Source: a virus
Strand: one strand, 5' to 3'
IMG/VR virus record: IMGVR_UViG_3300033143_004212
Coordinates: 1 to 64,000 of that record
DNA length: 64,000 bases
Shown: positions 4,023 through 56,472 of the stretch, piece by piece
Numbering within the stretch: position 1 is the stretch's first letter
Layout of the letters: each line of letters begins with the position of its first letter
Translations under genes and position numbers: made by a program
The notes under the pieces: model-generated
What the model saw: the letters and a program-made list of their open reading frames with translations, nothing else
Told to the model about the DNA's origin: nothing
Databases searched by the model: none

Positions 4023-4204
4023 TTTCCTGCTTTTTTGGGAAAAATCTATAGTAAAATACAAGTACAGATATCTTATCAATATCTGTATTTTGCGTGGCAT
4101 CTTGGGGTCGGTGTATTTTCGCAATAAAAAAAGAGAGGAAGATAAGTCCACCGGAGTATTATCTCCTCTGTACCCACCTTATACTCTCTTTAATAATTAT
4201 ATTA

Positions 4205-4447
4205 CTATGCTTCTTCTATTACCTCTGCTTCTGCTTCGTCTTCGATTACTACTTCTAATCTTTTAGTTTTAACGATTACTTTAACAACGATATCTAATTC
4301 TCCATCTCTTACTAAGAACTCTCCACTAGATAAATCTACTAAGATTTCATCTTCTCTAGCTTCAAAACCTTTTGCAAGTCTAGCTTTAACATCCTCACGT
4401 GCTTTTGTTGCGATTTCTTTTTTAGTTAATTCTTTAATAACAGCCAT
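4205..4447 (-). CDS. Small acidic protein (family shared with 6229-6465 and 8728-9000)
   Basis: GGAG RBS; own promoter TTGACT-17-TATAAT at 4536-4508. Confidence 0.8.
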   Translation of the reverse strand: MAVIKELTKKEIATKAREDVKARLAKGFEAREDEILVDLSSGEFLVRDGELDIVVKVIVKTKRLEVVIEDEAEAEVIEEA

Positions 4448-4556
4448 TTTGCACCTCTCCTTTTGTATTTTTTTTATTTTTTATTTTCTTTCCCTTAACT
4501 TACTTATATTATAACATATCTTCTCCCGAAAGTCAATAATAATTCTTAAAAATTTA

Positions 4557-4823
4557 TTAATTTCCGTAGGAAATTCTAATTGATTCTTCACGATGGATAT
4601 AATGGGAACCTTTATCTTCAAGATCTTTTATTTCAATTACTAAATCACTTCTTTCATACATACAGTAGATACCAATTTGTGCCATCCCTGCAACATATAA
4701 GTAATATAGTTTTAAAGCTTCTGCTTCAGTCCTTGCAACAAAAGTGATGATACCTCTTCCATTATAATCTTCATCCTCAGTTCCATATTCTTTAAATAGA
4801 TAACTAATTTTAAATTTTTTCAT
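4557..4823 (-). CDS. Hypothetical protein
   Basis: AAGGAG RBS; promoter TTGACT-17-TATAAT at 4878-4850. Confidence 0.75.
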   Translation of the reverse strand: MKKFKISYLFKEYGTEDEDYNGRGIITFVARTEAEALKLYYLYVAGMAQIGIYCMYERSDLVIEIKDLEDKGSHYIHREESIRISYGN

Positions 4824-5191
4824 TTTTCCCATCTCCTTTATCTATATATATTATATCATATCTTTACGTAAAAGTCAAGGGTTTTTTATAAGTATTTTCC
4901 TGGACATACGCCTTTTATAGCTAGTAAAGTGGTCGGGTAGAATTTCTGGAAGATTATGTAAATGGGGTCGGTGTAGGAGCGGTGTATAAAAATCCTGGTC
5001 GTGATGAGGGTCGGTGTAGGAGGGTCAAGGGGTCGGTGTATTAAGTTTTTATTTTGTATGTCAAGGGGTCGGTGTATTTTAGGGGTCGGTGTATTCCTAT
5101 ACTACGCCGATATCGGTGTACTACACCGCATTATCCGGTGTACCAATGAACAGAAAAAAATAGGAAGTAACTTCCTATTTTTCCTTAATTC

Positions 5192-5509
5192 TTAATTTTC
5201 ATTTAATTCGTCGAATGCGTCTAAAGTTAATTCTGATGTATTTCCAACTTCTACCAATCCTGTTTTTACTAATACTAAACGTTCTGCATTACTAATGTAG
5301 GTAAAAATAACTTTAACGTATTCATTTATTTGGATATAATCAGTACCGTAAATTACTCCATCAATTTCATCAAATTCCATAAGCTTTTTAACAAGGTCTC
5401 TAAATTCATTGGCTTCTTTTAAACTCATTACTCTTGAACCAATAGTTCCAATATTACCCATTTCTGTTACTCCTTCAAGTCTTACTGCTACTAAATCTGT
5501 AATTTTCAT
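5192..5509 (-). CDS. Hypothetical protein (105 aa)
   Basis: RBS; followed by terminator at ~5155-5182. Confidence 0.75.
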   Translation of the reverse strand: MKITDLVAVRLEGVTEMGNIGTIGSRVMSLKEANEFRDLVKKLMEFDEIDGVIYGTDYIQINEYVKVIFTYISNAERLVLVKTGLVEVGNTSELTLDAFDELNEN

Positions 5510-5522
5510 TTACTCCATCTCC

Positions 5523-5747
5523 TTAATAAGTGTAAATACTTTCCAATATTCTTACATGTACATCTGCATATTTCAAACCTTTTATAAAACCATTAATTTG
5601 TTCATCAATTTTATCATGGTAATTATCTCCAGATAAGATAACTTTATCCTTAACTTCGTCTCGCAATTGTACTGTACAATTCTCGTCTACTCCATCATCA
5701 TCTTGTAAATAATATTTTCTTAATATGATTGTTAATCTCATATTCAT
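5523..5747 (-). CDS. Hypothetical protein (74 aa)
   Basis: RBS and box promoter upstream. Confidence 0.75.
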   Translation of the reverse strand: MNMRLTIILRKYYLQDDDGVDENCTVQLRDEVKDKVILSGDNYHDKIDEQINGFIKGLKYADVHVRILESIYTY

Positions 5748-5953
5748 ATGCTCACTTCCTTTCTATATATATAGTATACCATGATATAGAGGTTTTTACA
5801 ACTATACGGTGTATCATACTTTATTTCCGGTGTATGTCCGGTGTACTATTCCCTTATACACCGTTTCTACACCGAATTCGGTGTACTACACCGGGTTTTA
5901 TCCTCTGATACACCGGGAATACACCGCAACTTAGACGTACAAAAAAAAGGAGA

Positions 5954-6184
5954 CTAAGCCCCTTTTTTTGTAATGATATCCATTAACTTCCTTTTCCCAT
6001 CTTCTACCAAAGCTTCTTGATATTTGATTTCGAGATATCCTTTCCAAGATTGGTAAAAAATGTGTCCTTTGGCAATAGCTTGTTGTTTGGTATAATTTGC
6101 CAAATTATCTTCCACCAAAGTTTTTCTTAATCTACCTTTGGTAGAATTTACCAACTGCTCCACTTTTTTATGAAGTTTCGCCAT
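5954..6184 (-). CDS. Hypothetical basic protein
   Basis: GGAGAGG RBS; terminator downstream. Confidence 0.7.
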   Translation of the reverse strand: MAKLHKKVEQLVNSTKGRLRKTLVEDNLANYTKQQAIAKGHIFYQSWKGYLEIKYQEALVEDGKRKLMDIITKKGA

Positions 6185-6228
6185 TATTACCTCTCCTTCC
6201 ATTTAGATGGAGAATAGGGAATAAATCC

Positions 6229-6465
6229 CTATTCGATAAAATCTACTTCTAAGATTCTGTCTTTTTTTTCAACTACTCTGAAAACGAAATCTTTTTTATC
6301 TCCCTTTTCATTTTCAAATTCTAGCACGATTCCTTCTTTGGTAAATTTTACCTCTTGCTCAAATTCTTCTGCAAGTAAGTTTGCAAGCTTTTCAAGTAAT
6401 TCGTCTCTTTTTGTAACTTTTACATTGATTTGCTTAGTTTTTGTATTCTTAACTAGTTTAGCCAT
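6229..6465 (-). CDS. Small protein (family shared with 4205-4447 and 8728-9000)
   Basis: AGGGAG RBS; stop fused to the shared terminator. Confidence 0.8.
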   Translation of the reverse strand: MAKLVKNTKTKQINVKVTKRDELLEKLANLLAEEFEQEVKFTKEGIVLEFENEKGDKKDFVFRVVEKKDRILEVDFIE

Positions 6466-6672
6466 TTATTTCACTCCCTTTATATAGTTTGTTATCTCTT
6501 ATCTATAACTAATTATACCATATATATACCTATTATTCAACTGTCCGGTGTATTTAGGGTGCGGTGTATACTTGAGTGCGGTGTATACTTGAGTGCGGTG
6601 TATAAGTAGAATAAGTGCGGTGTATCGGCAAAGTGTGGGGCATACGCCGACCCTATGCTATAAAAAAAAGAG

Positions 6673-7401
6673 CTAGTAAAGCTCTTTATGAATTTTTGCC
6701 ACTATTCGCCAAGGTTGGTTAATAATTCCTTTTGTGAATTTTTTGTGTTGTCTGTAACATTTTGCCATTATTGCCACTTCTATCTCTGTATCACTTAAAG
6801 CAGTGTGATTCTCAGAAAATTCCATATCTCCTGTAATATACCTATATCCAACTTCTGCATTTGTTAGTGGATTACATCCTTTAGTGTAAAGACCTAACTG
6901 ATTTACCATAAGATGGAAGCCTTTCTGAATATAGAGAGTTTCACAAGCTAATCCCCATATATCCTGTAATTTTACAGAAAATCTTAAAAACTTTTTACTT
7001 TCCTTAGAGCCGAATTGAGAATGTAAATATCTGGTAGTTGCTTTTAATGCTCGAATATCAAAACTGAGATTATATGCCAAAACTTCCTTTACATTCCATT
7101 TCTCTAATAAATCGTTAAATTCTTTTTTAGCTACTTTAAAAGGTACTTTACGCATTAAACGATTGGTAATTTTTTCCACATACATTGGTCGCTTACTTCC
7201 ATAATATGCCGAATTCATCATTTTTTTATTGTCAAAAATTTCCTTTATTACCCAATCTTTCTGTGCATAAATTTTACCTCGTTTGTCAGTAATTGTCACT
7301 CCTAAATCATATACCAAAGGGCTATCAAAGCAGCCTGCCGTCTCGGTGTCAAAAACTGCCAAATATTTCACTCTTTTATCATATTTTCCTTTTTTTGTCA
7401 T
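6673..7401 (-). CDS. DEDDh 3'-5' exonuclease
   Basis: Motifs FDTETAG, AYNLSFD, HTALSD. Confidence 0.85.
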   Translation of the reverse strand: MTKKGKYDKRVKYLAVFDTETAGCFDSPLVYDLGVTITDKRGKIYAQKDWVIKEIFDNKKMMNSAYYGSKRPMYVEKITNRLMRKVPFKVAKKEFNDLLEKWNVKEVLAYNLSFDIRALKATTRYLHSQFGSKESKKFLRFSVKLQDIWGLACETLYIQKGFHLMVNQLGLYTKGCNPLTNAEVGYRYITGDMEFSENHTALSDTEIEVAIMAKCYRQHKKFTKGIINQPWRIVAKIHKELY

Positions 7402-7638
7402 TATACCACTTCCTTCCAAATTCGTTTCGCTTGGCGTTCTCTATCTATAACTAATTATAGCATAGATAAGTGAATACTTCAAGTGTCCGGTGTATCTTGC
7501 TTGCGGTGTACTTCCGGTGTATTTCCGGTGTATTTTTAAAGAAAAAAATACATACACCGATTATACACCGAATTCGGTGTACTACACCGTAAGTTGCGGT
7601 GTACTGGTAAAATAAAAAAAATAGGGAATTAATCCCTA

Positions 7639-7974
7639 TTAACATGTAGTATTGTAAACAGTTAAAGTTACATCATAATCATTTTCTTCTAATAATTGGA
7701 ATTTCATAATGTGTAAATGCGTTCTTAATTCAAGTACAGATTCTTTAAAATCATTAGCAGATATAAAGTGCATTGGTTCGTCTGTTCCATCGTCAACAGT
7801 TATTATAAATAATAAATCCATTCCTGAAATGCTTTCCCATGTAAAAGTAACGGTAATAATATTTCTAGGGTCATCTATTGAAACACCATAAAAGCGACCA
7901 CCATCAATTTCACTATTTAAAATTTTATCTAAAATATCGTAATAAGTAATTTCTGGTAATTTTAAACTTAACAT
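7639..7974 (-). CDS. Hypothetical protein (111 aa)
   Basis: AAGGGAG RBS; terminator follows. Confidence 0.7.
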   Translation of the reverse strand: MLSLKLPEITYYDILDKILNSEIDGGRFYGVSIDDPRNIITVTFTWESISGMDLLFIITVDDGTDEPMHFISANDFKESVLELRTHLHIMKFQLLEENDYDVTLTVYNTTC

Positions 7975-7978
7975 ACAA

Positions 7979-8470
7979 TTACTCCCTTTCTTTATCTGCT
8001 AATACTTTTGCCATTCTAAAAGCATTTCTAGTTGCTTTTTTTTCTAGTTTAGTCGTATAGTAAAAATAATCCATAAAATCATTAGTAGCATGACAATCTT
8101 CTAAAAAATCCATTTCTTCTTTTTTTAATTCTAAATTGTAATTAAATTCTTCGGGATTATCTAAATAGTCTAACCAATGACCTAATTCATGTAATAGTAC
8201 AAATTCTGCGTAAGATAAATCTTTATTAATTTTTTGTAAAGTATCATATTCTATCCTATTCGTATAAGCGTCTATTGGAAGTTCTTGGAAATCTATTAAT
8301 TCTTCCATACTCATAGATACTCTTTTCCCTTCAATCCAAATACCACAACAGAAACCTTGTGAGAGATAAAGGTCGCCGAAAATTTCGGGATAATCTTTTT
8401 GCATTTTATAAAATAATTCTCGTACTTTAAACATATCTTCTTTTTTTACTATATAATTAGATTCAGTCAT
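7979..8470 (-). CDS. HEXXH zinc metallopeptidase-like protein (ImmA/IrrE-like); paralog of 11378-11860
   Basis: FVLLHELGHWLD ... LEKKA motif. Confidence 0.75.
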   Translation of the reverse strand: MTESNYIVKKEDMFKVRELFYKMQKDYPEIFGDLYLSQGFCCGIWIEGKRVSMSMEELIDFQELPIDAYTNRIEYDTLQKINKDLSYAEFVLLHELGHWLDYLDNPEEFNYNLELKKEEMDFLEDCHATNDFMDYFYYTTKLEKKATRNAFRMAKVLADKERE

Positions 8471-8727
8471 TCCATACACTCCCTTCCTTGTTTTATCCTA
8501 TAACTAATTATACCATATATATTATAATAAAGCAACCCATCGGTGTATTTCCGCCTTCAATCACGTATACACCGCACTTTTATTTTCTCTTGGTACACCG
8601 CAAATACACCGCACTTTTTGTACACCGGACTTTCTGTACACCGCACCATTGTAAAATTACTTGATTAGTGTTATACTATAAGTAGATAAAGAAGTGATAA
8701 TAAACTATAAAAAAGGAAGTGGAGAAA

Positions 8728-9000
8728 ATGACAGTTAAAGAGAAAAGTCAAAAGCAATTAGATAATGAATTAAGAGAAAGCATTAAAATTAGATTGGCAG
8801 AAGGTTTTGAAAATACTGATGAAGAAATGGTAATTGATAATGGTTCTTCATTAATTATTAGAGTTAATGATATTAATGTAGATGTTGAAGTAAAAATTAT
8901 TGTTAAGAAAAATCAATTTGATATTGAAATTGCAGAAGAAGAACCGGAAGAAGAACCGGAAGAAACAACAGAAGAACCGGAAGAAGAACCGGAAGAATAG
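8728..9000 (+). CDS. Small acidic protein with EEPEEE tail; inverted cassette
   Basis: Box promoter on + strand, RBS, shared terminator; similar to 4205-4447. Confidence 0.8.
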   Translation: MTVKEKSQKQLDNELRESIKIRLAEGFENTDEEMVIDNGSSLIIRVNDINVDVEVKIIVKKNQFDIEIAEEEPEEEPEETTEEPEEEPEE

Positions 9001-9020
9001 GGATTTATTCCCTTTCTTCT

Positions 9021-9222
9021 CTTAATTGGGATTTATTGGAAGATAAGTATTTGCTTTCGTAGTGTAATGAAGAATCGGACTAAATAGGTGGAGTTGCGAT
9101 ATCAAAAGGTACACACTAGCTTAACCAAAGTAGCCACCAGTCAAGGGAATCTTTAGGAGGTGCACACTCCTACTGTCTACCGAGCCAAAAGGATACTTAT
9201 CTCCCAGTAAATCCCAATTAAG
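9021..9222 (+). ncRNA. Candidate structured RNA enclosed by a 30-bp inverted repeat
   Basis: 9021-9050 pairs with 9193-9222 (28/30); internal stems GACT/AGTC, GGTGG/CCACC, TAGGAG/CTCCTA; no ORF. Confidence 0.55.
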
Positions 9223-9362
9223 GGATTTTTTTCTTTATGGAATCGTACACCGCATTATCCGGTGTATTTCCTGGTCGCGGTCGGCGTACTACACCGAATT
9301 CGGTGTATTTGCGGTGTAAAGTCGGTGTACTTGTAGGTAAAAAAAAGGAAGGATTTTCCTTT

Positions 9363-10133
9363 TTAGTCAATCCTTTCTATAATCATTTCTACATGCGTAT
9401 CTTCTTTTAAATCAATTCCAAAATCTTCCTCAATAGTATTTTTTATGAATTTAGGAAGATAAAGATTTAAATAAGTAATTTTGTAATTATCTGGTATTTT
9501 TGCAATTAATTCCTGTACTGTAATTGGTAAATAATTTTCTTTTACTTCTCTTTCCCAATTATTAATATATCTGTATTTTAATAAGTAATGAAGAAGATTT
9601 TTATTTGAAGTAATACTTCCCCAATTTTTCTCAAAATCTACAAGATTATCATTTTCTGCCATTTTTACTCTTCTTACAAGTTCTGGATTACTTAGTTTTT
9701 CTTGGGAGCTAACTATCATCATATCACGAATGACGATATATTTTGTATTAATTTTTTCAAATACTTCTTCCCAAAAATTAGAAGGATTGGAATAAGAATA
9801 AATTTCATGTATAATTGATGATAAGACTAAAACACTATTTTCTGTTTTTTCTTTTATGAATGAATCTAAATTATCAGTAAATATAATATCTTGATTATCT
9901 TTTTTTGCTTTTTCTAACATTTCTTGACAAATATCATACCCTATATATTTATAGTTTGGATATGAGAAATACATAGACTGTATAAATTTCAATAAAGTAC
10001 CATCTGCACAGCCATAGTCAAGAAAACTATCTGCATTTATTTTCCCTAAAAAGAACGCTTTTTCATATAATGATTTTTTCATAGCTTCAGTATATTCGTT
10101 TATATCTTTTATTTTATTATCTGTAATTTTCAT
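9363..10133 (-). CDS. Class I SAM-dependent methyltransferase
   Basis: LDYGCADG motif I, IGYDI motif II, LSSIIHE. Confidence 0.8.
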   Translation of the reverse strand: MKITDNKIKDINEYTEAMKKSLYEKAFFLGKINADSFLDYGCADGTLLKFIQSMYFSYPNYKYIGYDICQEMLEKAKKDNQDIIFTDNLDSFIKEKTENSVLVLSSIIHEIYSYSNPSNFWEEVFEKINTKYIVIRDMMIVSSQEKLSNPELVRRVKMAENDNLVDFEKNWGSITSNKNLLHYLLKYRYINNWEREVKENYLPITVQELIAKIPDNYKITYLNLYLPKFIKNTIEEDFGIDLKEDTHVEMIIERID

Positions 10134-10153
10134 AATATATCCTTTCATTGTAA

Positions 10154-10297
10154 TTATTTTACTTCTTCATAATCTTCTCCTGATACCCATTGCATATCTT
10201 TATTAGGAATACGTACTAAATACATTAAATAGAAACCATCAGCGTCAATGTAAATAACTGTAAATTCTTCTTTAGTCTTTTTATTTCTTACTTTCAT
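10154..10297 (-). CDS. Hypothetical protein (47 aa); below ORF-track cut-off
   Basis: AGGAG RBS just downstream of box promoter; MKVRNKKTKEEF...QWVSGEDYEEVK. Confidence 0.7.
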   Translation of the reverse strand: MKVRNKKTKEEFTVIYIDADGFYLMYLVRIPNKDMQWVSGEDYEEVK

Positions 10298-10480
10298 AGT
10301 ATATTCTCCTATCTATAATTAATTATATCATACTATAAAGAAAAATACAATCTTCCGGTGTATAAGACTTCCGGTGTATACTCGGTGTATAAAATATACG
10401 GTGTACTACACCGAATTCGGTGTATGTCCGGTGTAGAATCGGTGTATTGACAGTATAAAAAAATAGGGAATAAATCCCTA

Positions 10481-10945
10481 TTAAGCAACTTCTAGTAATT
10501 CTCTTAGAGTTTCTAAAATATGTTTTTCGTCTTTAGCAACTCCACCATAATTTTCCCATTTTTGTCTAATTTCTTCATTATCATCAAATAATAAACAATC
10601 TTGTAAATTTTTAGTAACATGTTGTTTTGGTGCTCCATACTGAACGCAATGAATTTCTTTTACCATTGGAAAATATTTACTTAACCAAGTTTTTTTATCT
10701 GCTCTGCATTGTGCTTTATATTCATCACTGGCAAACATTGGTAACCATGTAATAACCATAATTTCATATCCTTTAGCTTCCAATTGTTCACATAAACTGT
10801 TTAATTCTACCATATCTACCATTGGTTCAAGTTCATTGAAAATTGATTCAGCACTTCTTAATCTTTCTAGCCACCCATTAAAACCATATAAATTAGCAAC
10901 ATTTCCGTCCATATCAAATGCGATTCTTTTAATTTCTTTAGTCAT
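10481..10945 (-). CDS. HAD-superfamily hydrolase (5'(3')-deoxyribonucleotidase-like)
   Basis: FDMDG motif I, IT motif II, K, LFDDN motif IV. Confidence 0.8.
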   Translation of the reverse strand: MTKEIKRIAFDMDGNVANLYGFNGWLERLRSAESIFNELEPMVDMVELNSLCEQLEAKGYEIMVITWLPMFASDEYKAQCRADKKTWLSKYFPMVKEIHCVQYGAPKQHVTKNLQDCLLFDDNEEIRQKWENYGGVAKDEKHILETLRELLEVA

Positions 10946-10958
10946 TTTTTCCATCTCC

Positions 10959-11186
10959 TTACCATATAATTTGTATTGCATATCTATTATCACTTAATCT
11001 TATAATTGATTCAATCCATCTAATTAATTGTTTATATGTTAAATTTCTATAATGACAATTTTTTTTAGTCCTTCCGTTCCAATAGTAAATAGCATGATTA
11101 TTTTTTGCTCTATTCTCAAAACTAAAACATTTTGCCACTTCTAGCCAATCGTCTTTTCTAGTATAATCTACTCCAAATCTACGCAT
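10959..11186 (-). CDS. Hypothetical protein (75 aa)
   Basis: AAGGGAG RBS, box promoter. Confidence 0.7.
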   Translation of the reverse strand: MRRFGVDYTRKDDWLEVAKCFSFENRAKNNHAIYYWNGRTKKNCHYRNLTYKQLIRWIESIIRLSDNRYAIQIIW

Positions 11187-11377
11187 TGTTTATCGCTCCC
11201 TTTCTATATATATAGTATACCATATTAGATGTAAGTATTCAAGTATCCGGTGTATTATTTATTAAGTCCGGTGTATCTCCGGTGTACAGCTTATCATCGG
11301 CGTACTACACCGAATTCGGTGTATTTGCGGTGTACTTCCGGTGTATTAACAAACAAAAAAAAATAGGAAATTATTTC

Positions 11378-11860
11378 CTATTTTTCATCTGCTAATACTT
11401 TTGCCATTTTATAGGCATTTAAAGTTGCTCTTCTTTCTAATTTGCTAACAGTATAAAGATAGTTAATTAAATCTTCATGAATACAATGGTTTGTTAAAAA
11501 TCTCGAAATTTCTACTTTTTGTTCTGCGTTATATTCAAACTCTTCTGGATTATCTATATAATCTAACCAATGACCTAATTCATGTAATAATACAAATTCT
11601 GCAAAACATAAATCTTTATTAAATTTTTGGTATTCTTTATACCAAGGCATATATATATAATCATATGGAGGATTTAATATCTCATTTAATTCACTTAAGC
11701 TCATATATATTCTTTTAAGTTTAACATCTATGCAACAACGGCAACTTCTCTGAATTGTGAGGTCTCCGAAAATTTTAGGGTAAACATCTTGCATTTTATG
11801 AAATAAATCTATTGCTTTTCTTACGTCTCCTTTTTTTACCAATTCATCAGAATTTCTCAT
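11378..11860 (-). CDS. HEXXH metallopeptidase-like protein; paralog of 7979-8470
   Basis: AEFVLLHELGHWLDY identical to the paralog. Confidence 0.75.
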   Translation of the reverse strand: MRNSDELVKKGDVRKAIDLFHKMQDVYPKIFGDLTIQRSCRCCIDVKLKRIYMSLSELNEILNPPYDYIYMPWYKEYQKFNKDLCFAEFVLLHELGHWLDYIDNPEEFEYNAEQKVEISRFLTNHCIHEDLINYLYTVSKLERRATLNAYKMAKVLADEK

Positions 11861-12003
11861 TTTATTCTCCCTTTCTTGTTTTATCCTATAACTAATTATA
11901 CCATACATATTGGATTATTGCAATATTCCGGTGTATTTATTACAAGTACACCGTAAGTTCCGGTGTATTCTTAGTTTAAAAAAATAGGGAATGATTCCCT
12001 ATT

Positions 12004-12276
12004 TTAATCTTGTATTTCAGTTAAGTATCCTTGTTCTTTATATATTTTAAATAATGTTTCATTACTAAGAAATACCATTAAAAGAAAACCAATTAAATTT
12101 AATACAGGGAAAAGAAAAACTATCATAGATTTTATTTCTGCAAAAAGTTTTTGGGAAATACTTGCATTAGTATAAAATTCATATCCTATTTTCTTAATCT
12201 GTGTATTAAAATCTGCTAATCTAAAGAATGTGTATAATCTGAAACAAACACATATAATTACATATACTCTTAACAT
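12004..12276 (-). CDS. Membrane protein (2 TM)
   Basis: Hydrophobic segments, FPVLNL; GGAGG RBS. Confidence 0.7.
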   Translation of the reverse strand: MLRVYVIICVCFRLYTFFRLADFNTQIKKIGYEFYTNASISQKLFAEIKSMIVFLFPVLNLIGFLLMVFLSNETLFKIYKEQGYLTEIQD

Positions 12277-12482
12277 GATATATTACCTCCAAATATTTTA
12301 TTGTATTTTTCTTTTGTAATAAAAAGAATATTCTCATTTTCATAATCTTGATTGTCAAGAATTTCCAATACTTCTTCTTCTGTAACAACTAACCAACTAT
12401 ACATAACTATCATATCTACATATCTAACAGAAATCATTGTAACCAACATTTGCCTATATTCCATTACTCTTAAAGTTGACAT
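12270..12482 (-). CDS. Hypothetical protein
   Basis: AGGAGG RBS. Confidence 0.65.
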   Translation of the reverse strand: MSTLRVMEYRQMLVTMISVRYVDMIVMYSWLVVTEEEVLEILDNQDYENENILFITKEKYNKIFGGNISC

Positions 12483-12492
12483 AATTTACCTC

Positions 12493-12816
12493 CTACTTAA
12501 ACAAATTAGTATGTTTTACCAATACTATCGAATTGTAATATAATTTTTGGTCACAAGCTGAATATCTAAGAATTAAAGATATTGGAGCATGTTCAAAATT
12601 ATAAGGTAATAAATAAAATTTACAACTGTTTTGAGAAAAACAAACTAAAAATTTATGCCAACTATATTTATCATTCTCTTCAAATTTTACAATATCTCCC
12701 ACAAAAATTGGTTCTCTAGTTTGCTCACATTGTAAGCCAAAAAATACATCTTCCATAATTTTACTATGTTGTATAACTTTCTTAGTCAATTCAAATTCAA
12801 AATTTTCTGTTCTCAT
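12493..12816 (-). CDS. YopX-like protein
   Basis: GL...REPIFVGDIVK resembles the YopX EIYEGDIV motif. Confidence 0.55.
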   Translation of the reverse strand: MRTENFEFELTKKVIQHSKIMEDVFFGLQCEQTREPIFVGDIVKFEENDKYSWHKFLVCFSQNSCKFYLLPYNFEHAPISLILRYSACDQKLYYNSIVLVKHTNLFK

Positions 12817-12950
12817 TTCACACCCTTCCTTTCTATATAATAATTATACCATGATATAGAGGTAAATACAAGTGTCCGGTGTATTCGTCTTTAAATAATA
12901 CTAATACACCGCACGATTGAATAATACTTATATATATGTTATAATTAATT

Positions 12951-13048
12951 ATAGATAAGAGATAGATAACAACAGATAAAATCTGTGAAACACATAAATA
13001 TACCCTTTCTTAGTGGAGGTGGACTGTCGGTGGTCTGCCTTTACTTTC
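12951..13048 (+). ncRNA. Candidate ~100-nt small RNA from a box promoter
   Basis: Complete box promoter at 12905-12945, no ORF downstream, G-U-rich 14-bp hairpin at ~13012-13045. Confidence 0.5.
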
Positions 13049-13154
13049 GTATATATTATACACCGCTTTTTCCGGTGTACTACACCGAATTCGGTGTATT
13101 CCCGGTGTAAGGTCGGTGTACTTATGCTTAAAAAAAACTACCAATAAATGGTAG

Positions 13155-13583
13155 TTAAAATTGTTCTGGTAAATCATCCCAAGCTTTATTAGCTTGTTTT
13201 TCTCTTTCTTTATCTTTTGTTTCCAATAATATCCATTCTGTTCTTCTTCTTGCATGTTTTTCTAAAGCTGTAAATTTTTCTTTTTCTGTTAAATTATTAA
13301 ATCTATTCATATATTCTTCTTGACGACATCCAAATCCTAGGTCTCCTGTAAGTATTGAGTAACATGATGCAGTATAAATTGTTTCTTTATATGCTTCATT
13401 ATATATAAATTTTATATTCATATCAATCAAATATCTACATTTTCCTTTTTTATATGATATTAATCTAATATTTGCTTTTTCAATCCATTTTTTTTCAGAT
13501 ATTTTTATATAAATACAAAAACTAAATGCAGATATAATAATCATTGCAATAAATATATATCCTACTAATTCATTAAAAGCCAT
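13155..13583 (-). CDS. Membrane-anchored hypothetical protein
   Basis: N-terminal TM helix; RBS. Confidence 0.7.
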   Translation of the reverse strand: MAFNELVGYIFIAMIIISAFSFCIYIKISEKKWIEKANIRLISYKKGKCRYLIDMNIKFIYNEAYKETIYTASCYSILTGDLGFGCRQEEYMNRFNNLTEKEKFTALEKHARRRTEWILLETKDKEREKQANKAWDDLPEQF

Positions 13584-13598
13584 TTTGTACCTTCCTTT

Positions 13599-13781
13599 CT
13601 AGTATTTTACGTCCCATCTTAATTTTTCATAATTATAATTAAAAGCGGTGTAACATTTTTTACCATCTATAATCTTTGTAAATGTTTTAGTTTCATCAGT
13701 TGAGATATTTTCTTGATATTCCCATCCTTGACATTTCATTACTTCTAAAAATCTTCTACAAGCATGTTTTACTTTAGCCAT
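13599..13781 (-). CDS. Hypothetical protein (60 aa)
   Basis: AAGGAG RBS, box promoter. Confidence 0.7.
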   Translation of the reverse strand: MAKVKHACRRFLEVMKCQGWEYQENISTDETKTFTKIIDGKKCYTAFNYNYEKLRWDVKY

Positions 13782-13921
13782 AATATCTCCTTTCTATAGT
13801 TATATTATATCATATCACCAATAGAAAAGCAATGCTTCGGTGTATTAATTAGGCTTCGACCGCATTTTCCGGTGTATTCAATCTTTGCTTTTGGCATAAA
13901 AAAATAGGGAATAAATCCCTA

Positions 13922-14565
13922 TTATATAGCTATACATTGTCCTTTATAAAATTTACATCTTCCCGTATCACAAATTTTATATCCATTTTTACTTTTTATT
14001 ATATTATATAAGTTTAAATCTCTTGTTTCATATCCTGCACTATTAAATTCTTTTTTTATTTTCTTTATTTTCGATTCTATTCTATTTTCTTCTTTTATAG
14101 TATTAATTCTTTTTGCAATGCCTTTTTCTTGAATCATAATTATTTGATTTTTATATACAAATATATCTTCAACTTCAAGTAATTTTTTACCAAGCTTAGT
14201 ATCTTTTAACGTTTCATAATTTAGTGTTTCAATTACACTTTGGGGTCATCACAATCTTCTATAAAAAATTTAATTGATGATATAGAAGGTTTTAATTGTA
14301 AAATTTTAATAAAAGATAAATATTTTTTATTATTTATTGAATCGTTTTTAAACTCTTTTTCCAATTCTTGAGAAAGCTCACATATTTCTTCATCCATATA
14401 TCTATATTCACTTACCTCTTGTTCTTTCATAGATTCAATTTTAATAACATAATCTTCATTAAAAAAATAAACTTTTCTTCTTATCCCTTGACCTAAAAAA
14501 TCACATTCTTGTAAGTTGTCTATTTTTTCTTTAGCTTGCTCTCTCAATTTTAAATCTCTTTTCAC
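13922..14565 (-). pseudogene. Protein kinase-like gene split by a 1-nt frameshift near 14240
   Basis: N-part has FLGQGIRRKVY...YVIKIE; other frame continues QSVIETLNY...MIQEK...RDLNLYNI...ICDTG. Confidence 0.7.
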
Positions 14566-14809
14566 GTTTGTCACTCCCCTTCTATATATATAGTATAACA
14601 TATTATAGTAATTATTTCAAGCTTGCGGTGTATCCTGGTCGTAGCCGAGATACTGATAGTGGAGGGTCGGTGTATTAATATGGAAGTTACGGCGTATTTT
14701 CGGTGTACGGGTCGGTGTATTTCCTGCTCGCCCTCGGCGTACCGGTCGGTGTATGTACTTGTCGGTGTACCAGTCGGTGTATTGGGCATAAAAAAAATAG
14801 GGATTATCC

Positions 14810-15118
14810 CTATTGTAATCTACTAGTAACATCATATTGTGAAAAGTCGTTTCCACTAAAACAATATTCTCTGCTGAAATGTTGATAACTTACAAAAAAT
14901 CCATCAATTTGATATTGTCTAAAACCTACATATAATAATTCTCTATTAACCATTGCTTTAAAATGTGATACCAAATTAAAGGTACGTAAAACGTCATTTG
15001 TTGAACTATAAATTGTATACGCTACTTCTACTCTATTTTGTAATAGTAATTTTGAGATTATCACGCTTTTTCTAGTCATAAGCGTTTCTATTAAAGATTG
15101 TTGAACTTGATTTAACAT
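14810..15118 (-). CDS. Hypothetical protein (102 aa) with hairpin 5' leader
   Basis: AAGGGG RBS; stop fused to terminator. Confidence 0.7.
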   Translation of the reverse strand: MLNQVQQSLIETLMTRKSVIISKLLLQNRVEVAYTIYSSTNDVLRTFNLVSHFKAMVNRELLYVGFRQYQIDGFFVSYQHFSREYCFSGNDFSQYDVTSRLQ

Positions 15119-15606
15119 TTGATATCCCCTTTCAGTTGTAAGTATCTTCCATCGGTGTCCATAGATAGAAATAGGTCAAGCCAGAGACTAGTCGTTTAAC
15201 TTAACTCATTTCCTATCTATAACTAATTATAACATATTTCTCGCTTATTTGCTAGTTTGCGGTGTATTAAAGTTTTCCGGTGTATTCCCGGTGTATGTCC
15301 GGTGTATAAAATAGTTCCGGTGTATTTGCGGTGTATTTTCCTGGTCGTCCTCGGCATACGGAATATGGCCAACACTTTCCGGTGTATCTAAAGTCCGGTG
15401 TAAGGTCGGTGTACTACGCCGAAATCGGTGTAATGATTTTTCCAGGTCGTCCTCGGCGTACCGACTTTGGGTGGTACTTTCCGGTGTATAATTGGAAAAT
15501 AATGGAAGGAGTCGGTGTATAGGTCGGCGTATTCAGAAGGATCTTCCATTTATGGTAAATATTGGAAATTTCGATCCAAATAAAAAAAGGGAATAAATCC
15601 CTTTTC

Positions 15607-15891
15607 TTACAATAACTGGTAAGCCATATCTTCTGCCAAAAATTGGAAAACTGTATCAACTGGGAAATTATTCCAATCTTCGATTTTAGAAATGGGAATA
15701 TCATCCATTACTACCGCAACTTGGAATTTTACAATCCTACTAGTAGAATCTTCTATATCATCCATAATTTGGTGGAATACATTCGCACATTCTTTTCCAG
15801 GATTTCCCAAGTAATTTATAATATAAATTTTGGTTTCATTTACTTTTCCTGTAAATTGGATTTTAAATACTTTTTTTGCTCTGCTATACAT
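15607..15891 (-). CDS. Hypothetical protein
   Basis: AAGGAAGG RBS; terminator. Confidence 0.7.
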   Translation of the reverse strand: MYSRAKKVFKIQFTGKVNETKIYIINYLGNPGKECANVFHQIMDDIEDSTSRIVKFQVAVVMDDIPISKIEDWNNFPVDTVFQFLAEDMAYQLL

Positions 15892-15957
15892 AAAATACCT
15901 TCCTTTCAAATTTTTGGTAATTGTCGATGATTAGAGTAAAAGGGAATAAATCCCTTT

Positions 15958-16278
15958 TTACCATTTTAATACCTCTTCTGACTTAATTCGGAATTTATCT
16001 TCTAATTCAAAGGTAAATTTTAGGTCATATTCCAAATCTTGTAATAATCTATTAAATTTTAACTTAATCCATTGTTTTTCGGGTATTTCCCAAGTTTCTC
16101 TATAATTGGAAGTATATGTCATTTTACATTCGATCTCTATTTTTTCCTTTTCTGTTAAATTCTGTAATTCCTTTAATATGATATTTGTGGCTTCTTCTGT
16201 CTTAAATTCCTCATATAAGGGAATATAGTAAAATTTAGTCGGTTTTCCTTTTACTGTAACTGAATAACACTTTTTCAT
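15958..16278 (-). CDS. Hypothetical protein (106 aa)
   Basis: RBS; terminator. Confidence 0.7.
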   Translation of the reverse strand: MKKCYSVTVKGKPTKFYYIPLYEEFKTEEATNIILKELQNLTEKEKIEIECKMTYTSNYRETWEIPEKQWIKLKFNRLLQDLEYDLKFTFELEDKFRIKSEEVLKW

Positions 16279-16344
16279 GATTTTCCACCCTTTCCATATA
16301 TTGGTAACATATTAACTTCTTATGTAAGATTAGGGAATAATTCC

Positions 16345-16533
16345 CTAATCATTATCTAATTCTAAATTTTGGTAAGTTTCTCTAGCTTTCCTTAATAAGT
16401 CTTTTTCTGACAATTTTGGTAATTTTAACTCTTCATACGCTTCTACCAAACTTAGTAATTCATGGTTCTTTTGACTATTATTATCGATTCTGTTAAATAA
16501 TTCCTTTTCCCAACTTCTTACTGTATTTGTCAT
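16345..16533 (-). CDS. Hypothetical protein
   Basis: AGAGGGA RBS before MTNTVRSW. Confidence 0.65.
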   Translation of the reverse strand: MTNTVRSWEKELFNRIDNNSQKNHELLSLVEAYEELKLPKLSEKDLLRKARETYQNLELDND

Positions 16534-16626
16534 GATATTCCCTCTCTTCCTTATACTGGACATATGCCAGTTATTGTTAGTATATCCGGTTATTAGATGT
16601 ACTCCCACTAGGTGGGAGACTTGGAA

Positions 16627-17199
16627 TTAAATTCCAAGTACTCGTCTTACAATTGTTTTCCTTAATCGCATTTTATTTCCTACCTTTACAGTTTTTGCCT
16701 GTTCCATTAATATTGCTTTAAATTGCTTACGATCCATTTTATAACTATTAACCCAATTAATGTCAGTAATGAGATTTTCTAGCGAGATTACAAATATATC
16801 ACAATTCTGGTAATGCTTTAGGATTCTATTTACAAATTTGACATTACTTTCCTCTTCTATTCTTTTTATCTCAGAAATGGAAGGACTTGAGTTTTGTCCC
16901 AGATATTTGAATTGACATCTTTTACCATCATATACAAAGTCATACTGGCTAATTTTGTCAAAATTGGGATGTAATCCCAGTTGCATTTGTAGGTATAATT
17001 CTGCAAGTTTTCCACGATTTACCTGTTTTTTAAATCCATTACTCTCTTCAATTCCTAGATATGGAATTAATTGGTTAAAAACCCTCTGATTATTCTTTTG
17101 AAACATTTCTCTCCAGTTATTACTTTCTTTGGTACTAATGGCAATTTTTGGATTCTTTACTGTTTCTCTCTTTTCTGGTATATTATGTCTATTTGTCAT
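16627..17199 (-). CDS. Basic protein with possible PD-(D/E)XK nuclease-like core
   Basis: GKLAE...YDF...QFK pattern; promoter TTGTAT-17-TATAAT at 17308-17280. Confidence 0.6.
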   Translation of the reverse strand: MTNRHNIPEKRETVKNPKIAISTKESNNWREMFQKNNQRVFNQLIPYLGIEESNGFKKQVNRGKLAELYLQMQLGLHPNFDKISQYDFVYDGKRCQFKYLGQNSSPSISEIKRIEEESNVKFVNRILKHYQNCDIFVISLENLITDINWVNSYKMDRKQFKAILMEQAKTVKVGNKMRLRKTIVRRVLGI

Positions 17200-17384
17200 G
17201 ATTTTCCAACTCCCTTTCTGTTAATTATTTCCAATTCGTCCGGTGTAGAAACTGGGCATATCTCCCACTTCCTACCTTAATTATACCATACATTTTCCGG
17301 TAATACAAGACCAAATATGTAAAAAAATAGGCGATTCAAAAAGTATTTTCATATTTACCAGATCTTCCAGTACCTACCAGTTAA

Positions 17385-17516
17385 TTGTGTGTATTGTTTG
17401 GCGCAATAAGATAGTTGAATGGGGATAGGGGATGGCTTGCAATTGTGTATGTTGTTTGACACAACTTATACAAATGACGGGGGTAGAATACGACTTGCAG
17501 TTGTGTGTATTGTTTG
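17385..17516 (+). repeat. Degenerate 58-bp tandem repeat with core TTGTGTRTRTTGTTTG x3
   Basis: Cores at 17385, 17443, 17501. Confidence 0.8.
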
Positions 17517-18033
17517 AAAAATTCATACAATTCATATAATGTAAGCTTTTGACAGCTCTTACAATATCTACCAAAGCTTCCTGATCCTGCTTTTTATGGG
17601 GGTATCTGGAAGAACTGGGAGAGGGGGGTAGTTCTGGGAAAAATTCCCTGTAAAAAAATGGAAATCGGCGGGTGTGGCTCCATCCCCCCCCAATCAAATA
17701 TTATTTTCCACAGCGTACTAGCAAACCCTTTTTTTCCAGGACATAGCACTATTTGCTTTGCATTTCCCTATGTTCAATCCCCTTGTTACCAAATCCCCTT
17801 TTCAAATCCTAGGTGCAATTTCTTTAAGACCGCAGTGCGCTAGTTATTATTCATTGTTATTATCCATTCCCCAAAATTCATTCTCCCATAATTTTCTCTG
17901 GTCCTATGTTTGTGTTTCTTTTTAAAATATGATATAATATAAGTGAGATAAAGAAAAAGGGGCATAGTATTATAATATATATTATATTATATATTATATT
18001 ATATATCTCTTTATAAACAAAAGGAGCAAAAGG

Positions 18034-27735: not shown

Positions 27736-28344
27736 ATGGCTAAAAAAGATATTTTACCAACTACTTTATGTAAGGTTATTAGTATAACACCTGGATTGAA
27801 TGGATTAACTGCTCCATCTTTTCATTATCATATCGTTTTTAAACGTCCTGGACAAGTAATGCGAGTTAGATTTGAGATTTTACAAGATGCACTCCATGCT
27901 GATGATTCTTATATGTTAAATCACTGTTTAAGAGTTATGGATGGAGATGTGCGAAGAGAACTTGGATTAAATGATGATATCGAGTATAGTTTAAGTTTAG
28001 CAGATGTAGAAAAAATTATTTTATCAGGAACGCTTGAAGAATTAAGAGATTTATTCACTTATGGACCAGAAGGATATGCAAGATTAGCGGCAGATTTAGC
28101 TGTTAGAAAAGGTATGGATAGTACTGCTAAACTTGAATTAATTCAAGAATATAGTGGAATAAATGTTATTTTCCAAATTAAAGAAGGAATAGGACTTGAT
28201 GAAATAGAGGCAGAAGTAGAAAGAAAAACTGAAAGAAGTTATGATACAGTTAAAAAAGATGAACCAGAGGAAGTAGATGAGATTGAAGAAGAAGATAATA
28301 AAGAAGCTGCTTTACCTAAGTACACTAGAGTAGATAAGAAATAA
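27736..28344 (+). CDS. Hypothetical head-region protein
   Basis: AAGGAGG RBS; synteny. Confidence 0.7.
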   Translation: MAKKDILPTTLCKVISITPGLNGLTAPSFHYHIVFKRPGQVMRVRFEILQDALHADDSYMLNHCLRVMDGDVRRELGLNDDIEYSLSLADVEKIILSGTLEELRDLFTYGPEGYARLAADLAVRKGMDSTAKLELIQEYSGINVIFQIKEGIGLDEIEAEVERKTERSYDTVKKDEPEEVDEIEEEDNKEAALPKYTRVDKK

Positions 28345-28387
28345 TTTTAACTGGCGTACGCCAGTTTTTTATTGAGGAGGTTAAGAG

Positions 28388-28837
28388 ATGGTAACAAAAT
28401 TTCAAGATGTTTATGATTTATTCTTTGGTACTATTACAGATGATCTTTATATAAGCATGACGATAGAAGATACAAAAGCTGATGCACAAACCTTCTTATT
28501 ACTATCAATGGGAGAATTTAAATATTGTAAATTAGATCTTTTAGATTATAATTTATCTTTAAAATCTTGGAATATAGAATTAACGCTTGATGAAATGACT
28601 CATTTAGTATTTTTAATGAAAAAGTTTTGGTTAAAAAGACAAATTGATGATACTAATATAACTGATCAAAAAATTTATTCAGATAAAGATATAAAGGTAT
28701 ATTCTCAAGCAAATCATTTAGATGTTTTATTAAAAGCTTATAAAGAATCTAAATTAGATGTGAGAAAAGATAAAGATAGTTATAATAGAATTGATGGAAG
28801 TAGGAATGCTCGTTTAGGAGCAACAGCAGGCAAGTAA
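28388..28837 (+). CDS. Putative head-tail adaptor
   Basis: T.F..VYD.F N-terminus, SQANHL; synteny. Confidence 0.6.
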   Translation: MVTKFQDVYDLFFGTITDDLYISMTIEDTKADAQTFLLLSMGEFKYCKLDLLDYNLSLKSWNIELTLDEMTHLVFLMKKFWLKRQIDDTNITDQKIYSDKDIKVYSQANHLDVLLKAYKESKLDVRKDKDSYNRIDGSRNARLGATAGK

Positions 28838-54114: not shown

Positions 54115-56472
54115 ATGGCAGAAGTAATTAAAACCTTTACATTTACTAGTACCTTAGAAGGTTGGACAGGAACTGATGAAGGTAAGGCATATGCTGTCAA
54201 TACGTCAACAGATATTGGATTTGATGCGATTGGTCGTAACCAAGCAGGAACTCCAGATTGGACTTGGACAGGAGATTGGGAAGATTTAGGAGTAACGCCT
54301 GGTCATACAGTAACAGAAGTATTATTATCATTTGATGTTAATTGTGATTTATATAATATTGTAGATGTTGCTAGTTTTACTTACACACTGACTGCAGGAG
54401 GAGAAACATCTCAAATTATTTGAGATCCAACAGCGACAGAGTCTTATAACACGAAAACAGGTATTTTAAAAGTATTTTCAACTGCGAAAGATAGTACTGG
54501 TACCCTTAGTTTAGTTATTTTAGGTGATATGGATACAGGTAATAATAGTGCCGCAGAGCTATCTGTAAATTTTGATAATGTTAAAATAACTATTACAACA
54601 GAAGCAGCATCAACGCCAGTAACAGTTAATGCAGTGACAAGTACAAATACTTCGAGTGCTCTGATTCCAACAATTCTTGCAATTAAGAATGTGGATATCA
54701 CAGGAGTAACATCAACTAATACTTCAGATGCAGAAGTACCAATTATTGTTGCAGAAACTTCTACTAATATTTTAGCAGAGACATCAACTAATAATACAGT
54801 TGCTAAAGAACCTAGTATAAATACTATTAGAGCTCCTACCATTGATGCAGAAGTATCAACTTCTACTTCAGATGCGCAAGAACCTTCTATAAGTGCAAGT
54901 TTAAATATAAATGGAGAAGTATCAACTTCAACAAGTGATACAAATATTCCTACATTAAGTACCGGAGCAGGTATAAGTGGAGAAGCATCTATTTCAAATA
55001 CCGATGCTAAAATTCCTACATTAAGTGTAGGAATAAACATTCCAGGAGAAACATCAACTTCAACAAGTGATGCTAAAATTCCTACATTAAGTTTTGATAC
55101 AAGTGTTATTATTACAGGTGAAGTATCTATTTCAAATACTGATGCTAAAATTCCTACATTGAGCATAGAAATAAATGTAAATGGAGAAACATCTACTTCA
55201 ACAAGTAATGCTAATGAACCTACTATAATTGTAGATACAAGTACAGATATTGCAGGCGAGGTAGCAATTTCAAATACGAATGCTCAAATTCCTTTATTAA
55301 GTTTAGGATTGAACATAAATGGAGAAACATCTACTTCAACAAGTAATACTAATATTCCTACACTAAGTGTAGAAATAAATATTTTAGGAGAAACATCTAT
55401 TTCAACAAGTGATGCTAACGAACCTGTATTGAGTTTAGGATTAAATATAGATGGAGAAACATCTACTTCAACAAGTAATGTTAACGTTCCTACATTAAGT
55501 TTAGGATTAAATATAGATAGTGAAGTAGCAACTTTAACGAATGATGCGAATATTCCTATATTAAGTACTGGAATAGGTATAAATGGTGAAATAGCAACTT
55601 CAACAAGCAGTATTAATGAACCTGTTATTACAACAGTTAGAAATATTAATATTTCTAATGAGGTATCTACTTCAACGAGTAGTGCTAATATTCCTACATT
55701 AAGCTTTGGAGGAAGTGTTAATATTGCAGGAGAAACATCAATTTCGAATACGAATATTGAAACTCCTTCATTAAATATAGAAATAAATATAAGCAGTGAG
55801 GTAGCAACTTCAACAAATAATGCTAATGAGCCTACATTAAGTTTAGGATTAAATATAATTGGAGAAATATCAACTTCAACAAGTGATGCTTATGAAGCAA
55901 TTATAGATACAAAATCAAATGTCGATATTAGCGCGGAAACATCTATTACTAATACAACTGCAGAAGAACCTTTACTTAGTTTATCTACAGTAATAAATAA
56001 TGAAACATCAATTTCAAATACAAATATTGAAATCCCTGTAATATTTACAGAAACTAATATAAATATTAATAGTACAGTATCAAATTCAAATACAAATATT
56101 AATATACCTATAATAGATGCTATAATAAATTCTTATATAAATTCTGTTTTAGTGACATCAAATACTGATGCTTTAGAACCAACTATTGAAACTATTATGA
56201 ATGCATTAATAAGTGCGGAAATAGCAGAATCCAATATAGAAATTCCTCTTCCTTTCTTTGGAGAGCCAATAAATATAGAAGTGAATGCAGAAATAGCAAC
56301 TTCTAATAGTTTTGCTTTTGGAGATGCAGTCTATACAAGTATAGATGGAAGATTAAAGTATATTTCAGAAGTTATCGTATACGAATCTGTTAGAGATATA
56401 TTATTAGAAAGTAAAATTAGAAATATTCTTATTAAAGGATTAATAAGAAATATTAAAATACAATCAAAATAG
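54115..56472 (+). CDS. S/T/I-rich repeat virion protein (TGA=Trp at 54421)
   Basis: Track fragments in frame; ~28-31-aa repeats GETSTSTSDAKIPTLS. Confidence 0.75.

Follow-up and report, generated by a model that had tools for sequence, protein, structure and literature searches.

Promoters that depend on an activator and combine a weak −35 element with a binding site at a fixed position upstream are known from Mu Pm/Mor, lambda cII, the pho boxes of PhoB with their 11-bp phasing and the 0A boxes of Spo0A. Other repeated sites are the heptad operators of Omega (pSM19035) and the 11-bp iterons of ParR/parC. Multi-operator repressor regulons occur in phiC31, with inverted repeats at its early promoters, and in the mycobacteriophages L5/L1, with asymmetric operators and 'stoperators' (see PMC1934351). 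In the T4-type phages RB49 and phi1, promoter-early stem-loops (PeSLs) combine a terminator hairpin with a sigma-70-type early promoter and lie between small, mostly unknown genes of a plastic region, and PeSL mini-circles have been shown (Arbiol et al. 2010, PMC2839356). Here, we describe an array of small early gene cassettes in a window of 64,000 nucleotides, the first 64 kb of the 83.4-kb IMG/VR virus record IMGVR_UViG_3300033143_004212 (g0 or G000), and compare it with two close relatives, a 127.8-kb record (G001) and a 7-kb metagenome contig (L027). The array lies at 4109-17247 and is studded with one heptamer, CGGTGTA/TACACCG, whose copies may well be the operators through which one sequence-specific DNA-binding protein governs the early-cassette promoters together, as one regulon, a reading to which we give an even chance. 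A sequence-only reading had seen in the heptamer clusters integron-like recombination joints and/or a multi-site protein-binding tract for protection, decoy or partition-like functions.

The heptamer is present in 94 exact copies, all of them within 4109-17247 (shuffled sequences: mean 1.36, maximum 4), and in no copy in the other 19 kb of the record. The count over the record thus bears out the sequence-only reading, which had noticed no clusters beyond the array. The 11 copies of the one-mismatch variant CGGCGTA are all found within the same clusters. Altogether, the heptamers form 14 clusters of 2-15 copies, and three copies stand singly, at 4109, 13646 (within an open reading frame, ORF) and 17241. 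A nested palindrome core, TACACCG-AATT-CGGTGTA overlapping CGGTGTA-C-TACACCG, is located at 5868, 7564, 9282, 10399, 11298 and 13073, as had been claimed, with variants at 5103 and 15407.

4109-17247, minus strand: whole early cassette array, about 27 small genes and all 94 heptamers of the record
15260-15531: largest cluster, 15 copies including CGGCGTA variants, holds CGACCAGGAA
14626-14781: cluster of 9 copies
13838-13876: cluster of 2 copies
13059-13120: cluster of 6 copies, nested palindrome core, no adjoining minus-strand promoter
12877-12911: opposed heptamer pair, one copy heading each of two divergent boxed promoters
11929-11967: cluster of 3 copies, including TACACCG-N7-CGGTGTA
11248-11345: cluster of 8 copies, nested palindrome core
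10356-10446: cluster of 8 copies, nested palindrome core
9246-9329: cluster of 7 copies, with the CGACCAGGAAA motif
8541-8643: divergent cluster of 6 copies, the outermost heading the promoters of 7979-8479 (minus strand) and 8719-9000 (plus strand)
7488-7603: cluster of 9 copies, promoter-side part orthologous to G001 16552-16592 (heptamers invariant, spacers diverged)
6546-6649: cluster of 6 copies, a single copy at the orthologous G001 joint
5807-5926: cluster of 9 copies, nested palindrome core
4969-5142: tail cluster of 10 copies

Base skews and ORFs place the genes of 4.1-17.3 kb on the minus strand, and along the direction of transcription the order at the joints is terminator, cluster, promoter. 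The cassette unit of the sequence-only reading has to be redrawn in this respect: terminators, promoters and clusters are present, but the cluster that was taken to close a unit after its terminator belongs upstream of the next promoter. Thirteen promoters share a common geometry, that is TACACCG, 5 nt, T(T/A)Gnnn, 17 nt ending in TG-n, and TATA(A/C)T. In these boxed promoters the nearest heptamer is exactly 5 nt upstream of the −35 and is always directed at the promoter. Three promoters within the array, one at its head and two at its tail, are box-less; the single heptamer at 17241-17247 is found within the 5′ leader of the head operon.

7454-7494, minus strand: example of a boxed promoter, TACACCG / 5 nt / TTGAAG / 17 nt with TG / TATAAT
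Heptamer ends at 5813, 6552, 8547, 10362, 11254, 11935, 12883, 13844, 14632 and 15266, minus strand: boxed promoters
Heptamer starts at 8637 and 12905, plus strand: boxed promoters
17280-17320, minus strand: box-less head promoter, TTGTAT / 17 nt / TATAAT, heading the operon 17199-15607
4878-4850 and 4536-4508, minus strand: box-less tail promoters, near-consensus −35 TTGACT

The boxed promoters are weak in their −35. None of 33 boxed promoters of the three phages has TTGAC[AT] at this position, as compared to 31 of the 42 unboxed TG-extended promoters (Fisher p = 6e-12). A site at fixed distance and orientation together with a −35 that is weaker than in independent promoters of the same genome is what a class II-like regulon should display. 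Three quarters (75%) of the heptamer copies point one way, but the plus-strand promoters at 8637 and 12905 carry oppositely oriented copies of their own, and hence the orientation follows the local promoter and not the genome. Spacing is restricted as well: among 124 neighbouring pairs of the same orientation, the distance is 11 bp in 44, 21-22 bp in 25 and 16-18 bp in 24; TACACCG...CGGTGTA pairs are spaced by 11 or 14 bp exclusively, and CGGTGTA...TACACCG pairs chiefly by 8 bp (16 of 41). A second motif, CGACCAGGAA, stands directly before a heptamer four to five times per array in all three phages and is nearly absent elsewhere. CGACCAGGAA(A) is often itself preceded by TACGCCG (9246-9329, 14626-14781, 15260-15531), and the motif may be the site for a second factor. 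The tail clusters (4969-5142; G001 13651-13798; L027 6346-6494) repeat the unit TACACCG-ACCC(C/T)-TTGAC, which contains the start of a consensus −35 and no −10; these units may be half-promoters or decoy sites.

The sites are conserved in the close relatives. G001, whose portal protein is 67% identical, has 88 heptamer copies, about 84 of them inside the syntenic array, and L027 has 55. The boxed geometry is kept at no fewer than 11 promoters in G001 and at 8 in L027, with variable spacer sequences, while the identity of orthologous genes amounts to 35-77% at the protein level and 70-78% at the DNA level. In a three-phage alignment of the orthologous promoters of the exonuclease-like gene, heptamers and −10 are invariant and the spacers have diverged; each copy therefore appears to be selected for its sequence. 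The number of copies is not kept, as seen at 6546-6649 with six copies versus one at the orthologous joint of G001. Being fixed to promoters, conserved and phased, the sites argue for the multi-site protein-binding tract of the sequence-only reading.

The core of the operator extends beyond these three phages. A 31.5-kb contig, L029, has exonuclease-like and NT5C-like proteins in common with the studied phage (~31% identity) and about 25 early cassettes, each headed by one TAGGTGT-N3-ACACCTA palindrome that in most of them is separated by exactly 10 nt from a downstream consensus −35, TTGACA. Its core, GGTGT-N3-ACACC, is the same as the core of CGGTGTA-C-TACACCG in g0, whereas the flanks of the half-sites differ between the clades (TACACCG versus AACACCTAA). 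Arrays of this palindrome were found in at least 12 IMG/VR contigs. Two of these are complete genomes (181 and 183 kb), in which the palindrome does not occur outside regions of 15-20 kb. The core may organise early transcription across a wider clade of large phages, while the multiplication of operators into clusters is special to g0 and its two close relatives. Enterococcus phage H1 has a syntenic row of small cassettes but no GGTGT-N3-ACACC at all; the cassette row is therefore old, and the operator belongs to the uncultured clade. In H1 (OP534061 91.5-102.7 kb; L138 9500-20800) about 20 early mini-cassettes carry their −35, TTGACA, within the hairpin of the preceding terminator, in its stem or its loop, a PeSL-like promoter-in-terminator design in a Firmicute siphovirus. 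A megablast of the array against 50,697 phage records gave no match, and the exact 18-bp palindrome had a single chance match in IMG/VR (L009).

Two further records, G002 and G003, were found through the triple-repeat pattern. They have no proteins in common with the studied phage and were rejected as the same system; theirs is a separate one. L016 1880-1985 (G002 54352-54450) and L017 1280-1374 each carry five TACACCGCAAA units with an 11-bp period in a single cluster, inside a divergent promoter region, in phages with 38-40% GC.

From the geometry and conservation of the sites, the weak −35 and the turnover and copying of modules we infer binding, activation and the identity of the protein as follows. 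The nearest copy would span about −48 to −42, 5 nt upstream of a weak −35 with a TG-extended −10 of host sigma-A type. A protein bound there would most likely contact RNA polymerase and activate transcription like a class II activator, and the outer copies, phased by one or two helical turns or set in three fixed palindromic arrangements, most likely would be a platform for cooperative loading. An activator is favoured since promoters that depend on one usually show this pairing of a weak −35 with an upstream site at a fixed position. Expression would start with the head operon and the box-less genes as immediate-early genes, and the 13 boxed cassettes would then be turned on together. The binder is probably phage-encoded, and its leading candidate is an 83-amino-acid MarR-type winged helix made from a strong box-less promoter. 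The module of terminator, cluster and promoter, repeated about 14 times, would double as a homology patch for exchange, loss and copying of cassettes. It is tempting to speculate further that a minimal winged-helix protein without a fixed dimer interface loads phased heptamers in any orientation and so builds enhancer-like hubs that switch on the row of weak-promoter cassettes together, and that these hubs grow and shrink fast and double as linkers plugging accessory genes into the regulon. We regard this extension as unlikely on present evidence; if true, it would be a combined regulatory and gene-capture architecture across an uncultured phage clade of 83-183 kb (several records are incomplete).

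The candidate emerged from a screen for g0 proteins that are common to G001, G004 and G005 yet absent from H1. This gave five proteins, only one of which has a DNA-binding fold.

77332-77583 of the record (beyond the window): 83-amino-acid winged-helix protein, replication module

It has weak matches to winged-helix families, and its predicted fold is a minimal winged helix of the MarR type in which the dimerisation helices of MarR are missing (predicted local distance difference test, pLDDT, 91). The gene has no TGA codon and has its own box-less TTGACT promoter. The protein is present in four of the four operator-bearing records that include the replication module and absent from the operator-free phage H1 as well as from the 50,697 phage records; the fragments G006-G008, which do not have it, also do not have the neighbouring replication gene and are uninformative. 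H1_27, the ORF at the matching position of H1, is not homologous and was rejected. A neighbouring MarR-like protein of 131 amino acids is confined to g0 and G001, with no homologue in the wider clade. The sequence-only reading had suggested looking for a recombinase or a DNA-binding protein that co-occurs with the motif; no tyrosine or serine recombinase turned up in four records, but the 83-amino-acid protein, judged by its modelled fold and distribution, is the leading candidate for the binder.

Promoters in the replication module, among them those of the two winged-helix genes, have a second kind of box, (T/C)AACTnn, likewise 5 nt upstream of the −35 (window 59785, minus strand; record 75877, 77740 and 81400, minus strand; G001 78130, 96096, 100065 and 107562). 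In G005, TAACT directly abuts the ACACC half of the palindrome.

The same operators could also belong to a repressor or silencer that is made early, loads cooperatively and shuts off the early cassettes at the switch to replication and late genes. Both readings agree that the sites, as far as their sequence and placement tell, are operators of a regulon, and several observations weigh against activation. Up to 15 copies per cluster are more than an activator needs and suit a cooperative repressor or silencer at least as well, as do many phased copies in three palindromic arrangements that would favour oligomerisation. MarR-type proteins are usually repressors, and the fold of the candidate also resembles AspA of pNOB8, a spreading centromere protein. 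The palindrome of the wider clade precedes consensus TTGACA promoters, which should need no activator. A phage without its own RNA polymerase or sigma factor would need a promoter-specific shut-off. The size of the clusters is free at orthologous joints (6 versus 1), so that most copies may be dispensable, the exact spacing could in part reflect copying of whole modules, and the phyletic support for the 83-amino-acid protein amounts to four records versus one. However, no copy overlaps a −35, a −10 or a start site, the sole copy in a leader being that at 17241; the constancy of offset and orientation points to a contact with RNA polymerase; and a systematically weak −35 is expected if the boxed promoters are activated, but not if they are repressed. 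We therefore consider repression unlikely, if the most serious competitor of activation. Still less likely is a borrowed host transcription factor as binder, which would tie early expression to host physiology and might be titrated by the arrays. Early genes must fire before phage proteins exist, the array is readable in the standard code of the host, and the unrelated G002 and G003 carry their single tandem TACACCGCAAA cluster in a divergent promoter region, all of which would suit such a factor. On the other hand, the flanks of the half-sites vary with phage relatedness, the cultured Enterococcus relative is wholly without the site, and no known Firmicute factor motif could be matched to TACACCG or GGTGT-N3-ACACC. 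To our knowledge, none of the motifs of Spo0A, WalR, PhoP, NrdR, CopY/BlaI and other Firmicute factors fits the heptamer.

Cassettes do come and go in this region, as had been predicted. The order of array genes is collinear among the relatives and the differences are whole cassettes. A HEXXH cassette between the inverted cassette (8637-9018, see below) and the exonuclease gene is present in g0 and L027 but missing there in G001; a methyltransferase cassette is found at that place in g0 only, the G001 gene being located 15 kb off and outside the array, with homology that ends at the gene ends; and a gene for 210 amino acids has a different location in L027. Only one junction, that of the HEXXH indel, could be mapped. 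In G001 this joint holds a single cluster, 16552-16719. Its stretch up to 16592 can be aligned to the promoter-side end of the exonuclease cluster of g0, and from about 16690 on it bears the promoter of the inverted cassette. Since it matches different joints at its two ends, the join is within the cluster, at G001 ~16592-16690. Breakpoints inside clusters, as expected from the sequence-only reading, are thus seen for the HEXXH cassette but not for the methyltransferase. Promoter modules at orthologous positions are no more identical (0.42-0.64) than non-orthologous ones within one genome (0.55-0.69), and in L027 two promoters of different genes are identical over 35 nt, which indicates that modules are copied or converted within the genome.

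These movements, the junction inside a cluster and the copying of modules would be expected if the clusters were mainly recombination joints, be it for site-specific, integron-like recombination or for exchange that starts with the cut of a phage nuclease, for example the 190-amino-acid head protein, the first array gene product, which weakly resembles type II restriction endonucleases. We consider this very unlikely. No match to the tyrosine recombinases (PF00589) was found in G000 (56% complete), G001, G004 and G005, while the controls matched in 14 of 14 genomes, and there are no serine recombinases in G000, G001 and the two complete wider-clade genomes G004 and G005. Unlike those of integrons, the cassettes bring their own promoters as well as terminators, the sites are fixed to promoters to the base pair, the backbone order is collinear, the breakpoints of the methyltransferase are at the ends of the gene and outside any cluster, and the 190-amino-acid protein was not found in the wider operator-bearing clade, where one palindrome per promoter suffices. 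Ordinary homologous recombination between the repeated modules, which has been shown for PeSLs (PMC2839356), is enough to explain the pattern. It fits the shuffling better than site-specific recombination does, and the shuffling is best read as a by-product of the operator arrays. Least probable of all, and hardly credible to us, is a role of the clusters in DNA maintenance, as origin iterons, a partition centromere, Chi-like protection from exonucleases or a protective or decoy tract at the leading genome end. The 11-bp phased repeats do resemble iterons and parC-type centromeres, the copies share one orientation to 75%, and the array adjoins a non-coding region at 17.3-18.0 kb with other repeats. 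But the heptamers are distributed over 13 kb in fourteen separate clusters that each go with a promoter, and not in one or two beside an initiator gene and an AT-rich element, as in an iteron origin; the orientation tracks the local promoter, inverted cassette included, and not the genome end; Chi sites require neither phasing nor palindromes; and ParA (PF13614) and ParB (PF02195) are absent from the four records, in which ParM and ParR were not searched for. The Chi-like, iteron, centromere and decoy readings were rejected on these grounds, and with them the partition, protection and decoy roles of the sequence-only reading. The array qualifies neither as an integron nor as a partition site or origin.

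The phage itself is a large tailed phage, as seen from the portal, terminase, tape-measure and tail genes in the window, and the record is estimated to be about 56% complete. Among cultured phages, it is closest to Enterococcus siphoviruses of about 140 kb and more distantly related to phages of Lactococcus, Bacillus and Brevibacillus; the group probably comprises large siphoviruses of Firmicutes. Genes outside the array were read with code 4. The 27 array genes have no TGA codon, neither as sense nor as stop, which fits translation before any recoding machinery is made. Their standardised terminators, AATAGGGA...TCCCTATT, overlap the stop codon, as had been described, and terminator-like sites number 21 versus 4.9 expected.

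10462-10482, minus strand: example of a standard terminator, AATAGGGATTTATTCCCTATT and a T run, overlapping the stop codon
7620-7640, 13903-13923, 14796-14814, 11981-12005, 15936-15961, 5154-5184, 6667-6687 and 13136-13156: similar terminators
8637-9018, plus strand: inverted cassette with boxed promoter, gene for 93 amino acids (8719-9000) and terminator
16627-17199, minus strand: first array gene, 190 amino acids, 52-54% identical in G001

Inspection of the array genes confirmed the duplication of the HEXXH genes, which are paralogues with 51% amino acid identity. Only two members of a supposed three-member paralogue family were found (4205-4447 and 8719-9000, 36% identity). The inverted cassette is indeed on the opposite strand, but the same inversion is present in all three related phages; it is therefore old. 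Searches of about 30 array proteins in Pfam and PHROGs left nearly all of them without a family, except for exonuclease-like, NT5C/HAD-like and S-adenosylmethionine (SAM) methyltransferase proteins. For the 190-amino-acid head protein no relative was found in IMG/VR and the AlphaFold model was unusable (pLDDT 41). Its nearest neighbours in the ESM Atlas are RsaI-, PvuII-, Bsp6I- and SmaI-like restriction endonucleases (feature score 0.94, TM 0.45-0.49), with a Q-x-K motif where E-x-K is usual. This is a weak lead to a PD-(D/E)XK restriction-endonuclease-like protein, which may be a host-DNA nuclease or a DNA binder.

Three stretches between the genes deserve mention. An element of 210 nt at 9018-9228, between the inverted cassette and the next cluster, has imperfect terminal inverted repeats that close a stem of about 36 bp (fold −74 kcal/mol, z = −5.7). 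G001 and L027 do not have the element at the corresponding joint, and it matches nothing in Rfam; a structured RNA and a miniature inverted-repeat element are both conceivable. The Rfam scan as a whole gave nothing at gathering score and one chance-level match within 8950-9280. Downstream of the plus-strand boxed promoter, at 12905-13058, there is no ORF of at least 40 amino acids on that strand before the next cluster, and about 60 nt of the transcript region are conserved in G001 (21369 onward, plus strand); a small RNA or an antisense transcript to a 16-codon minus-strand micro-ORF is possible. Finally, the non-coding region 17330-18000 between the array and the structural genes contains a word of about 20 nt, CAAACAATACACACAA(T/C)TGCAAG-like, that occurs three times, and a conserved ACTACCCCCCTCT stretch. 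Both features are present in G001 27900-28450, and the region is a candidate for an origin, a packaging site or a genome end.

Taken as operators, the heptamers define a complete and sharply bounded early regulon in an uncultured phage, with 13 promoters, one invariant operator word and a candidate regulator. If activation is the right reading, the early programme would be staged by a promoter-specific factor and not by a new sigma factor or RNA polymerase, and the arrays would offer a compact, orthogonal set of promoters and operators, possibly useful in Firmicute genetics. Searches of the literature for the heptamer and the palindrome gave primer matches or nothing, those for operators at early promoters gave papers on temperate-phage repressors only, and nothing was found that describes a lytic-type phage with phased clusters of up to 15 operator half-sites at the head of every cassette.

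Compared to known systems, the array is clean and conserved yet within current concepts. With Omega and ParR/parC it shares 7-bp units in both orientations or 11-bp phased repeats that flank promoters; in those systems small dimers bind them cooperatively. The Omega heptads, however, are contiguous with a 7-bp period and are read by a ribbon-helix-helix protein, and parC is a single centromere with ParM or ParA as partner, whereas here ParA and ParB were not found and ParM was not searched for. From integrons, whose promoterless cassettes each end in an attC site and share one promoter, it differs in having no intI-type tyrosine recombinase, in the boxed promoter and terminator that each of 13 cassettes owns and in repeats that stand upstream of promoters. 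Multi-operator repressor regulons also have one short operator word tens of times in the early region, read by one phage protein as is proposed here, but they serve temperate phages in maintaining lysogeny, and stoperators, all in one orientation, are found within transcription units. The present sites form phased clusters upstream of promoters, and no integrase was found in four clade records, two of them complete. Activator-dependent promoters have in common with the boxed promoters a stereospecific upstream site at fixed distance, a good −10 combined with a poor −35, and direct repeats spaced by one helical turn; the differences are far more sites per promoter, direct plus three inverted arrangements, a regulon that is a contiguous row of cassettes and an activator that is so far a candidate. 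Finally, PeSLs share with the array the repeated module of terminator and early promoter, the use of modules as homology for shuffling and indels bounded by modules, as in the HEXXH, methyltransferase and 210-amino-acid cassettes that differ among g0, G001 and L027, with one junction within a cluster. In PeSLs the −35 is preceded by an AT-rich tract and a repeated GC-rich operator is missing, whereas the modules here carry 2-15 invariant, phase-fixed heptamers each and are found in siphoviruses, not in T4-type phages. This is a second, unrelated phage group that pairs repeated control modules with cassette turnover, and it extends the PeSL idea beyond the T4-type phages.

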